DNA of 64,000 nucleotides. It comes from Eledone cirrhosa. Its lineage: Eukaryota. Made by a program: the position numbers and the translations under genes. Below the pieces are notes generated by a model. That model was not told the DNA's origin, did not search any database, and saw only the letters and a program-made list of their open reading frames with translations. How positions within the stretch are numbered: the stretch's first letter is position 1; each line of letters opens with the position of its first letter. Positions 28,942 to 61,246 of this stretch are shown piece by piece. Location of the stretch: contig OZ024747.1 of NCBI GenBank assembly GCA_964016885.1, positions 42,346,001 through 42,410,000 of the forward strand, read 5' to 3'.

Positions 28942-29421
28942 ATGTGGTTTGTTGTTTCGTGTTATCGTAACTCTGAAGCTGCTCAGCCCAGACTTAACAT
29001 AAAGATGGAACCGAACCATTGGGTTGTGGTCAGGTGCTGTAATCGAACACACGACACGTTCACCCCTGAAGACAACAGACGGCCCCACAGGGATATTTCT
29101 TCCTCATTTTTCTCCTCCCCGTCTTCCAGCTTCTGTTGTCACAGTGCCTCACCGCCTCCGCCACCCAGGCCACCTCCCCCCCAACTACAAGATCTCTATG
29201 GCTTGGATTTTCGATTCAAAGCCCTACCTCCAAGGAACTTCTACTCCCCGCCAAATAATGTTAATGATGATGATGATGATGATGGTAATACATACGAATG
29301 TGGTGATGACAACGAGGACGACAGTTGGCATGGTGATGTTATTGCAGTTGATGATGATAATGATGATGATCACGATGATACAGTATGTCATCATTCACGC
29401 CAGCAGGATTACCATGCAAAG
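28942..29421 (+). CDS. Probable first coding exon of the DYRK4-like gene (low-complexity Ser/Pro/Asp N-terminus)
   Basis: Open for 160 codons from ATG 28942 (alternative ATG 29005 in AAAGATGG). Ends at AAG|GTAAAT, a phase-0 donor compatible with the phase-0 acceptor at 45335. No homology evidence. Confidence 0.5.
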
Positions 29422-45334: not shown

Positions 45335-45629
45335 AAAAAACCAGTAGCAACTGTAGCCCCGACTACAAACCTACCGCAACTAAATGGAATCGACCCTGTG
45401 CAACTAGTTAACACCCGGTGTCATAATCATAGCTATGCAAAAGATGAGAGCTTTTTACTGAACAAGAAACCTGTTTCCCAACTGCCAGAATTACAGATAA
45501 ATGGCCGACTGGAACAATCTCCTATGTCTCCAGATACAACAAACAATAGTTACAGTACTAATAACATCAACGAAAGAAGCAATTGTCATTTGAATCCCTA
45601 CCGTAACCATCTGCCACTGACACCATCAG
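45335..45629 (+). CDS. DYRK4: DYRK4-like kinase, N-terminal exon (phase 0 to 1)
   Basis: Strong pyrimidine tract then CAG|; KKPVATVAP...HLPLTPS; CAG|GTAATC donor. LPLTP joins in frame to the next exon. Confidence 0.8.
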
Positions 45630-49228: not shown

Positions 49229-49392
49229 ACTCTGTTAATCATTACAAAGATAGGCTGACAAATTATGAACAAACAGAGATCTTTGACTATACAGAGGTCT
49301 GGTTTCTAGGGATTGATGCCAAGAAGATTGAGGGTTGCCCTGGGAAAGCTGGAAACTGTGGGTACGACGACGAAAATGGATCCTACCTGAAG
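49229..49392 (+). CDS. DYRK4: DYRK4-like kinase exon, NAPA/DH-box region (phase 1 to 0)
   Basis: DSVNHYKDRLTNYEQTEIFDYTEVWFLGIDAKKIEG...GYDDENGSYLK; TTTTGCAG| acceptor and AAG|GTAATT donor. Confidence 0.95.
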
Positions 49393-50605: not shown

Positions 50606-50917
<312 letters not shown>

Positions 50918-56488: not shown

Positions 56489-56629
56489 GTTTCATCACCA
56501 AGCTCACGTGGAAGTGAAAATACTCGAACACCTATTGAAAAAAGACAAAGATAATCGCTACAATGTGATACACATGGGAAGATACTTTTATTTTCGCAAC
56601 CATCTTTGCATTACGTTTGAATTAATGGG
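56489..56629 (+). CDS. DYRK4: DYRK4-like kinase exon, subdomains III-V (phase 2 to 2; absent from the ORF track)
   Basis: (R)[46 protein letters not shown](G); AAG| acceptor and GG|GTAAGG donor. Confidence 0.95.
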
Positions 56630-58893: not shown

Positions 58894-59032
58894 AATGAAT
58901 CTATACCAGTTAATCAAGAGAAACAACTTCCAAGGCTTCAGTGTGAGCTTGATACGAAAGTTTGCCATCGCTTTACTTAATTGCTTGAAACTATTACACA
59001 AGGAAAAGATTATTCACTGCGACCTGAAACCA
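58894..59032 (+). CDS. DYRK4: DYRK4-like kinase exon, subdomain VI (phase 2 to 0)
   Basis: [46 protein letters not shown]; TGCAG| acceptor and |GTAAGT donor. Confidence 0.96.
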
Positions 59033-59459: not shown

Positions 59460-59932
59460 TATATATATATTAGAAAGAGTCAGGGCCCGACGGCTGAGCT
59501 CTTACCATTTCAACAACTATCCCAAGTATCGACTACTCTGTTGAATAATGGTCTAACTATTTTAATACTGGTTTAATCCTAATAATATATATATATATCC
59601 TGCTCATGAAATTAACATGTAAGTGGCTGAGCATTCCATAAATGTTCATAATGTAGTTCCCGGTAAAATTCGCCGTGGCGTGACACAGTGAGTAACAAGG
59701 TTGGCCTTTTGAACTACAGGCACATTCCATCCGACGTGTTTGCAGTTTCTGCCTACCCACTTCAACTCGCAAGGCATCGGTAGACTCGTGGCTATGGTAT
59801 ATAACATTTGCCCAAGATGTCAAGCAATGGGATCGAACCTGGGACCTAATGATTAAGTAGACTTCTTAACTATGTAATTCTATGACGTCCACTTAATTTA
59901 AGCAATGTAATGTGTTTTGTCTATTTTTACAG

Positions 59933-60014
59933 GAAAACATTTTACTAAAACCACGAGGTCAAAGTTCCATAAAGGTTATAGACTTTGGTTCCAGTTGTTA
60001 TGAATATCAACGAG
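59933..60014 (+). CDS. DYRK4: DYRK4-like kinase exon, subdomain VII (phase 0 to 1)
   Basis: [27 protein letters not shown]; TTACAG| acceptor and G|GTACGT donor. The YxY exon was not found in the window. Confidence 0.96.
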
Positions 60015-60072
60015 GTACGTTTCAATATTTATACATTGCTTCTTTGACGAGCAAACATTATGTATATCTGTA

Positions 60073-60262
60073 TAGGCGGTGGATTGGTAGTATCAGTAGA
60101 GAGTCGGACGCCATGCTTTCCAGCATAGTTACGTCCCTTTACGGTCTGAGTTGAAACCCCGCCGAGGTTAACTTTGCCTTTCATCCTTACGGGGTCGATA
60201 AAATAAAGTACCAGTAATGTACTGGGTAATTGCTGGCCTTGTGCCAAAAGTAGAAACAATTA
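60073..60262 (+). mobile_element. SINE family A
   Basis: Matches 11431-11619. Confidence 0.85.
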
Positions 60263-60927
60263 TGTATATCTGTACGCGTGCGCGAGCGCACGCATACACA
60301 CACACAGATGTATTTATGTATAAACTCTGGACTTAATGTCTGTTTTTAACTTTCGATCCATCGAGTGCTTTGTGATTACCTTAAACAAATCGAATAGTAC
60401 CGCTGTACTGCAGCTAAACTTCGATTTACAAATATTATATATATATATAATATATATATATATCGAGTTGTCTGCCGGCGAAACAATTGTAACACACAAT
60501 AAATTGAGTTCAGATGCATCACTGATTTTTCGTTTTATATTATATCACACTCTGCTCTGTAAGAACATAGAGTGCTCAACCGGCATACCACCTATGGAAG
60601 CATCATAGCTACCATCAGACACACATATATATACATATATATATATATATATCGCTCTCTCATTCTCGAAGAAATTAGCTATGTTCAGATCTGCAGAGGG
60701 GAGGGTTTCCGCCAAATTTAAAATTGCCAAGGCACACTGCCTATCCCTACGGCACCCCTACGACTCCATTGGGATTACTGGTCCATGCATACATGCAAAA
60801 TAACCTTAATTGAGTTTAAATTCTTCTTTACCTGAAATCATAGGTAAAAACTTCAATAATATCTTGATATCGGGAATCCACAGAACATTTATCTAAACAC
60901 TATTCTAATTGGTTGTCTTAATTTCAG

Positions 60928-60954
60928 GCTCTAACTTACAAGATGGTGGGTCAG
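60928..60954 (+). CDS. Candidate 27-nt microexon of the DYRK4-like gene (phase 1 to 1)
   Basis: TTCTAAT branch-like site, TCTTAATTTCAG| acceptor, CAG|GTAAGA donor; open in the required frame (GSNLQDGGS). Confidence 0.45.
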
Positions 60955-61246
60955 GTAAGACGTACTGGCCATTATTAGAATGACTTCGTTGTTTAGTTAT
61001 TTATTTATAATACTAAATTAACATTCAGATTAATGTGAACTAGACAAGATATTTAGCTGATTAAATAGTTCAATAGCCTCAATGGCTGTATTCCAGACAA
61101 CTTCTGTTCGATAAGCACATGCACCCCCCCCCCATATATATATATATATGTTAAGTATTTCCGTGGAAAAAGGGTAAAGGAAAGAAGAGTGCTCTATGTA
61201 TAGTAAAGAGCTATTTGTTTATGTAATAAACAACACAATATAATTA

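Follow-up and report, generated by a model that had tools for sequence, protein, structure and literature searches.

We describe here a 27-nt microexon in the DYRK4 kinase's activation loop in Eledone cirrhosa which is real, apparently coleoid-specific and likely alternatively spliced, and for which a function can only be proposed. Its peptide, GSNLQDGGS, falls between ...YQR and VYTY of the loop, and its inclusion would put 20 residues, where there are otherwise 11, between the DFG motif and the autophosphorylated tyrosine. The window analysed is a stretch of 64,000 nucleotides (G000:C7:42346001-42410000) of a 3.0-Gb genome, and the 100 kb downstream of it were examined as well. We hold it almost certain that the exon is real in the E. 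cirrhosa genome, we infer its splicing in E. cirrhosa itself, and we consider alternative splicing in this species probable.

A sequence-only reading of this DNA had proposed a 27-nt exon with a branch-like site, an acceptor, a donor, no stop and phase 1 at both ends, and our coordinates and signals agree with it (Table 1). Positions 60928-60954 have the make-up of a cassette microexon, i.e. 27 nt, AG/GT borders, phase 1-1 and an open frame, flanked by TTTCAG upstream and GTAAGA downstream. The CTAAT at 60905-60909 stands at -23 from the microexon, and there is no other AG from -44 to -3, the previous one being at -46. TGC is absent from the 100 nt upstream of the microexon, just as the earlier reading had noted no UGC near the acceptor. 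That reading had also set the insert just before the YxY motif on the strength of a next exon that it could only infer: the upstream exon (59933-60014) ends ...CAACGAG/GT, and beyond a downstream intron of 8,248 nt (from 60955 to L001:5202) we located this next exon outside the window, at G000:C7:42415203 (L001:5203), where it starts TT TAC ACT TAT and encodes VYTYIQSR in the expected phase. Because the phase of the next exon fits, skipping and inclusion both keep the frame.

Within the microexon, a weaker internal donor at 60946-60951 (ATG/GTGGGT), which scores lower, could yield an 18-nt in-frame form; a matching 6-residue insert occurs in none of the 639 proteins fetched. Very high-copy short interspersed repeats occupy 60064-60268 and 60474-60637 of the upstream intron. 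Over 59900-61100, two sequencing runs of unrecorded kind showed repeat signal for the most part, with no joint between exons among the rows listed, and are uninformative either way.

Searching the window and the 100 kb downstream with cephalopod proteins (tblastn) recovered twelve further coding exons of the gene, from 28942 to a point ~15 kb beyond the window; the microexon itself escaped detection, as is usual for such searches. When the genome was searched with the next exon, the DYRK4 locus matched at 100% and five other kinase loci matched less well, so that a single DYRK4 locus is seen. The closest paralogue (64%, G000:C2:357129830-357130057, minus strand) is an intronless DYRK2/3-like gene with a 1,452-aa open frame, and being intronless could not hold such an exon. 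In the next exon, identity reaches 99% with O. vulgaris DYRK4, 97% with Argonauta and 91% with Sepia. The best matches of the O. sinensis ortholog P0121 (XP_036361871.1) are DYRK2/3 chains (E 1.5e-144); from residue 115 it aligns without gaps to the N-terminal region of DYRK2 chains, and the exon at 49229-49392 matches it at 79%. Judged by sequence, with a kinase domain nearest DYRK2/3/4 and a YTY activation motif, the gene thus reads as a class 2 DYRK and an ortholog of DYRK4; the 11-residue spacing from DFG to tyrosine of this class is found in the skipped form and becomes 20 in the inclusion form, which is the very variant described here and no ground for excluding the gene from class 2. 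The gene shows further variation at both ends. O. sinensis and Argonauta DYRK4 share a C-terminal exon of ~27 codons (L002:2181-2258; G000:C7, about 42,422,180) which both O. vulgaris models lack, and which is a possible second cassette exon. Cephalopod DYRK4 models join several different N-termini to the exon at 45335 (from 28942-29337 of the window and from upstream of 45335), which suggests alternative first exons.

Table 1. Microexon, splice signals and coding exons of DYRK4 along the window, and proteins of other organisms with probable intron read-through
Feature	Position	Strand	Details
Probable first coding exon, long DYRK4 form	28942..29337 (end approximate)	+	matched in tblastn by P0005 (O. 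vulgaris) and P0006 (Argonauta)
DYRK4 N-terminal exon	45335..45629	+	tblastn
DYRK4 exon, N-terminal NAPA / DH-box region	49229..49392	+	region aligns to DYRK2 chains
DYRK4 exon, glycine-rich loop and catalytic lysine	50759..50895	+	
DYRK4 exon, helix C to hinge	56489..56629	+	
DYRK4 exon, catalytic loop (HCDLKP)	58894..59032	+	
DYRK4 exon carrying DFG (ENILLK...)	59933..60014	+	82 nt, phase 0 to 1
Upstream intron, DFG exon to microexon	60015..60927	+	913 nt, holds high-copy repeats
Microexon 3' splice region	60905..60927	+	CTAAT branch-like site, T-rich tract, CAG acceptor
Microexon	60928..60954	+	27 nt, symmetric phase 1-1; splice signals and insert of O. sinensis RefSeq ortholog (P0121)
Microexon 5' splice site GTAAGA	60955..60960	+	CAG/GTAAGA, 6/7 consensus positions
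Probable read-through proteins, other organisms			P0011, P0296, P0297, P0306, P0308, P0311, P0327, P0333, P0343

How readily could such an exon arise by chance? The 9,188-nt intron holds 81 YAG..GT candidates, 3-51 nt long, that keep the frame and have no stop, and a donor of 6/7 is found in this microexon only; on the reverse strand, 0 of 75 candidates have an equally good donor. Under order-1 Markov resampling (200 runs), a candidate as good appeared in 11.5% of the introns, so that the splice signals alone are suggestive and no proof. What is decisive, at the level of sequence, is the match to the O. sinensis insert GSNYQDGES (XP_036361871.1): GSNLQDGGS agrees with it at 7/9 positions, the best among 9,159 9-mers of the intron, the runner-up reaching 5/9.

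The insert is already contained in public gene models, all of them automatic annotations: the RefSeq DYRK4 of O. sinensis, which turned up among cluster members, Argonauta hians GAB1610898.1 (GQTSPSQES) and Sepia (Acanthosepion) pharaonis CAE1301254.1 (GSDSSDDNS). Conservation in other cephalopods, to which the sequence-only reading had looked, is therefore borne out by 9-residue inserts in all three, behind which the same cassette presumably lies. A search with the next exon listed 120 matches, 104 of which span DFG to YIQSR, with a spacing of 11 in 100, 20 in three (Argonauta, S. pharaonis and a cuttlefish-type protein) and 60 in one. The insert of the cuttlefish-type protein, P0009, is DSDSSDDNS; its first residue is D, not G, and with 17 other alignment differences from P0123 it is probably from another species. 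Both O. vulgaris models are without the insert, which may reflect skipping or missed annotation, and the gene models of some octopus species may indeed miss the microexon.

Alternative use can be followed in the cuttlefish-type cluster, where nine of the 15 members listed (of 18) include the insert, four skip it and two are without the span. Among these listed members, contigs with the insert number 66 and those without it 9, counts that are not expression levels and come from records with unlabelled tissues. In three pairs the 9 residues of the insert are the sole difference; the skipped forms are long proteins (544-688 aa, 9 contigs). Considering that contigs of 2-4 kb encode 544-697 aa, and that the gene spans 50 kb here, they would represent spliced RNA. 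From these records, alternative splicing with inclusion as the main form appears likely, and the choice between inclusion and skipping may be regulated. Alternative use, as put forward earlier, is thus supported in the cuttlefish-type records, but inclusion looks like the usual form and not the rare one. Two genomic-type ORFs that match the cuttlefish exon at 78/78 positions carry intron-like residues in place of the insert ahead of VYTY, which is indirect ground for setting aside an alternative acceptor as the origin of the cuttlefish insert; an alternative donor may account for it.

It is interesting to consider what has been kept in the insert, and what has not. Across species it has stayed 9 residues long, polar-acidic and free of basic residues; identity to GSNLQDGGS falls from 7/9 in O. 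sinensis to 4/9 in Sepia and 2/9 in Argonauta, against 91-97% for the next exon. The flexible Gly/Ser segment of the sequence-only reading thus holds up in length and polar character, but not in its Gly/Ser sequence (2-4/9 to argonaut and cuttlefish). The sole near-invariant residues are the first G and the last S, which we take to be favoured by the AG/G and CAG/GT splice consensus, and since they can be explained in this way, none of the residues shows clear selection at the protein level. We reject the idea that the insert holds a conserved phospho-motif, as serines and prolines fail to align across species. Three residues before the insert, octopods have a tyrosine and cuttlefish an asparagine in place of the histidine found in human DYRK2 and in the other molluscs listed, hinting at local remodelling.

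Beyond the cephalopods, a spacing of 11 was found in all 81 scored members of nine mollusc clusters (91 of 200 members listed, 10 without the span) and in all 76 scored new members of ten further animal clusters (22 without the span). An insert-bearing profile, run against 50%-identity representatives with a cut-off of E<=1e-30 (best 150 of 6,032), found this segment, which reaches into the active site, at the same length of 11 in 146 of 147 scored representatives; the exception, at 20, is a cuttlefish protein (Sepia), and three were unscored. The 639 proteins fetched in all, including many redundant isoforms, divide into 565 at 11 (of 586 scored), 12 at 20, 9 at 28-60 and 53 without the span, and all 12 with a spacing of 20 are coleoid-type DYRK4. 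When the region holding the O. sinensis insert served as query, the three insert clusters came out on top, and the 63 new proteins (120 matches listed of 283) all have a spacing of 11. No further 9-residue insert was seen among shorter proteins in the 120 matches listed of 3,056, nor any activation-loop insert among the vertebrate DYRK4 proteins fetched; the records surveyed included neither Nautilus nor squid. The nine non-coleoid proteins with a spacing of 28-60 (Table 1) were rejected as inserts: they are probable cases of in-frame intron read-through, their ends fitting GT.. and ..AG as far as can be told from protein. These gene calls suggest that the host intron at the microexon position is old and widespread.

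A quick tree of 47 kinase regions, from which the insert was removed, unites all insert carriers in one clade (SH-aLRT 99), with a long coleoid DYRK4 stem (0.25). As the carriers comprise both octopods and decapods, whose split is put at ~240-245 Ma (PMC13076209), it is most economical to suppose that the insert was gained once, before the two diverged. We therefore consider it likely, from the sequences compared, that the insert is coleoid-specific and at least ~240 My old, and that the microexon was gained in the coleoid cephalopod ancestor.

In alignments with DYRK2 chains, the insert shows up as a clear-cut gap of 9 residues that ends one residue before YTY. In AlphaFold models built from 60-sequence alignments, pLDDT is 57 for the insert block and 73 for the next (YTY) block of P0121, and 71 for the equivalent block of a protein without the insert (P0004), with TM-scores to DYRK2 7ejv_A of 0.93 and 0.92, respectively. 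A flexible bulge on an intact fold, with the YTY segment unchanged, is thus predicted; such models lean on known DYRK structures and mostly insert-free homologues, and are weak evidence on activity. TxY/YxY positions are described as being kept between ERK2 and DYRK despite differing loop lengths (Soundararajan et al., PMC3677093). The activating tyrosine is reported to be phosphorylated in cis by a transient intermediate, with the NAPA region needed in class 2 DYRKs (PMC3250476, PMC12738607), and the structural basis of this one-time self-activation via a folding intermediate is described as still unclear (PMC12738607). We posit that the most likely mechanism would be a spacer effect, in which a longer loop and added negative charge beside YTY alter the ease with which the folding intermediate places the tyrosine in its own active site, or else alter the substrates or regulators that dock there; the outcome would be a pair of isoforms, both active but unequal in strength.

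The reading we prefer, and to which we give an even chance, is that of a spacer, included most of the time, which tunes activation or docking and does not block self-activation. We could go further and speculate that coleoids rebuilt one of the most length-invariant kinase activation loops of eukaryotes, with tissue-specific splicing acting as a dial on DYRK4 cis-autophosphorylation; this is a tentative proposal, and a rather unlikely one. Counting against the preferred reading are the two insert-free O. vulgaris models, the fast drift of the insert and the long coleoid DYRK4 stem, the last being compatible with relaxed constraint. Perhaps, then, the insert is simply tolerated at an exposed loop tip, the exon being near-constitutive in coleoids and skipping a leak with no regulatory role. 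The drift and the long branch would suit this explanation, as would end residues that fit the splice consensus, a strong donor, inclusion in 66 of 75 contigs and a fold predicted to be intact; we take it seriously and yet judge it somewhat improbable, for the exact length of 9 residues has been kept from octopods to cuttlefish against a short loop in 146 of 147 scored representatives, and the long skipped proteins on 9 contigs hint that skipping prevails in some samples, or else that coverage is thin.

Quite improbable, in our estimation, is an on/off switch in which inclusion blocks tyrosine autophosphorylation or substrate access, leaving the long form inactive or a scaffold in the manner of TrkC. 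The closeness of the insert to YTY lends itself to this idea, and so do the short-lived intermediate that phosphorylates the activating tyrosine in cis (PMC3250476, PMC12738607) and TrkC inserts, which are described as changing specificity and impairing signalling (PMC6859819); however, the models retrieved for O. sinensis, Argonauta and S. pharaonis are all of the long form, which is also the commoner one among cuttlefish-type records, the catalytic core is highly conserved, and the predicted fold is unchanged. That the signals in the E. cirrhosa genome are disused, or the match a product of chance, is barely credible: whilst resampling yields splice signals as good in a fraction of introns and the O. 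vulgaris models skip the microexon, the best splice candidate is also the best 9-mer match to the O. sinensis insert, with frame, acceptor and donor intact.

Tiny exons beside an autophosphorylated tyrosine are a feature shared with FAK, whose neural microexons flank the Tyr397 autophosphorylation site and tune autophosphorylation; those of FAK differ in that they belong to a vertebrate tyrosine kinase and lie elsewhere than in the activation loop. We take the kinase insert of TrkC (NTRK3) to adjoin the activation-loop tyrosines. Its isoforms, like those of DYRK4, arise by a spliced insertion in the kinase domain, which is described as changing substrate specificity and signalling (PMC6859819). 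TrkC differs in being a receptor tyrosine kinase activated in trans whose insert-free form is the canonical active one, whereas coleoid DYRK4 is a CMGC kinase, of a family that autophosphorylates in cis, and in what is apparently its major form has the insert ahead of YxY. Splice variants of mammalian DYRK4 reportedly differ in localisation and catalytic activity, and are said to affect the N-terminal NLS/NAPA region, unlike the coleoid loop insert. Regulation of mammalian DYRK4 by splicing is also described in a review (PMC7465136).

The DYRK4 microexon resembles the neural microexons of the eMIC and SRRM3-4 in being short and frame-keeping, with a CUAAY branch-like site and a long AG-free zone (PMC8797185), and is unlike their targets in having no UGC, no UCUC within 100 nt and a strong donor. 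As UGC is reported to be absent in 21-26% of SRRM3/4 targets (10.1101/2024.09.17.613571), its absence here lowers the chance of eMIC membership and does not exclude it; going by sequence features, we regard neural eMIC control as unlikely. We found no published description of the coleoid DYRK4 insert in a search outside which lay most subscription journals and the octopus microexon supplements, which could list it.

To conclude, we offer this microexon as a candidate for a change of splicing that is specific to cephalopods and affects a signalling enzyme. The long and standard forms that coleoids hold side by side are a natural pair for testing the DYRK activation mechanism, and were tissue-specific splicing indeed a dial on cis-autophosphorylation, this isoform pair would directly test how loop length governs the folding-intermediate mechanism of the DYRKs.
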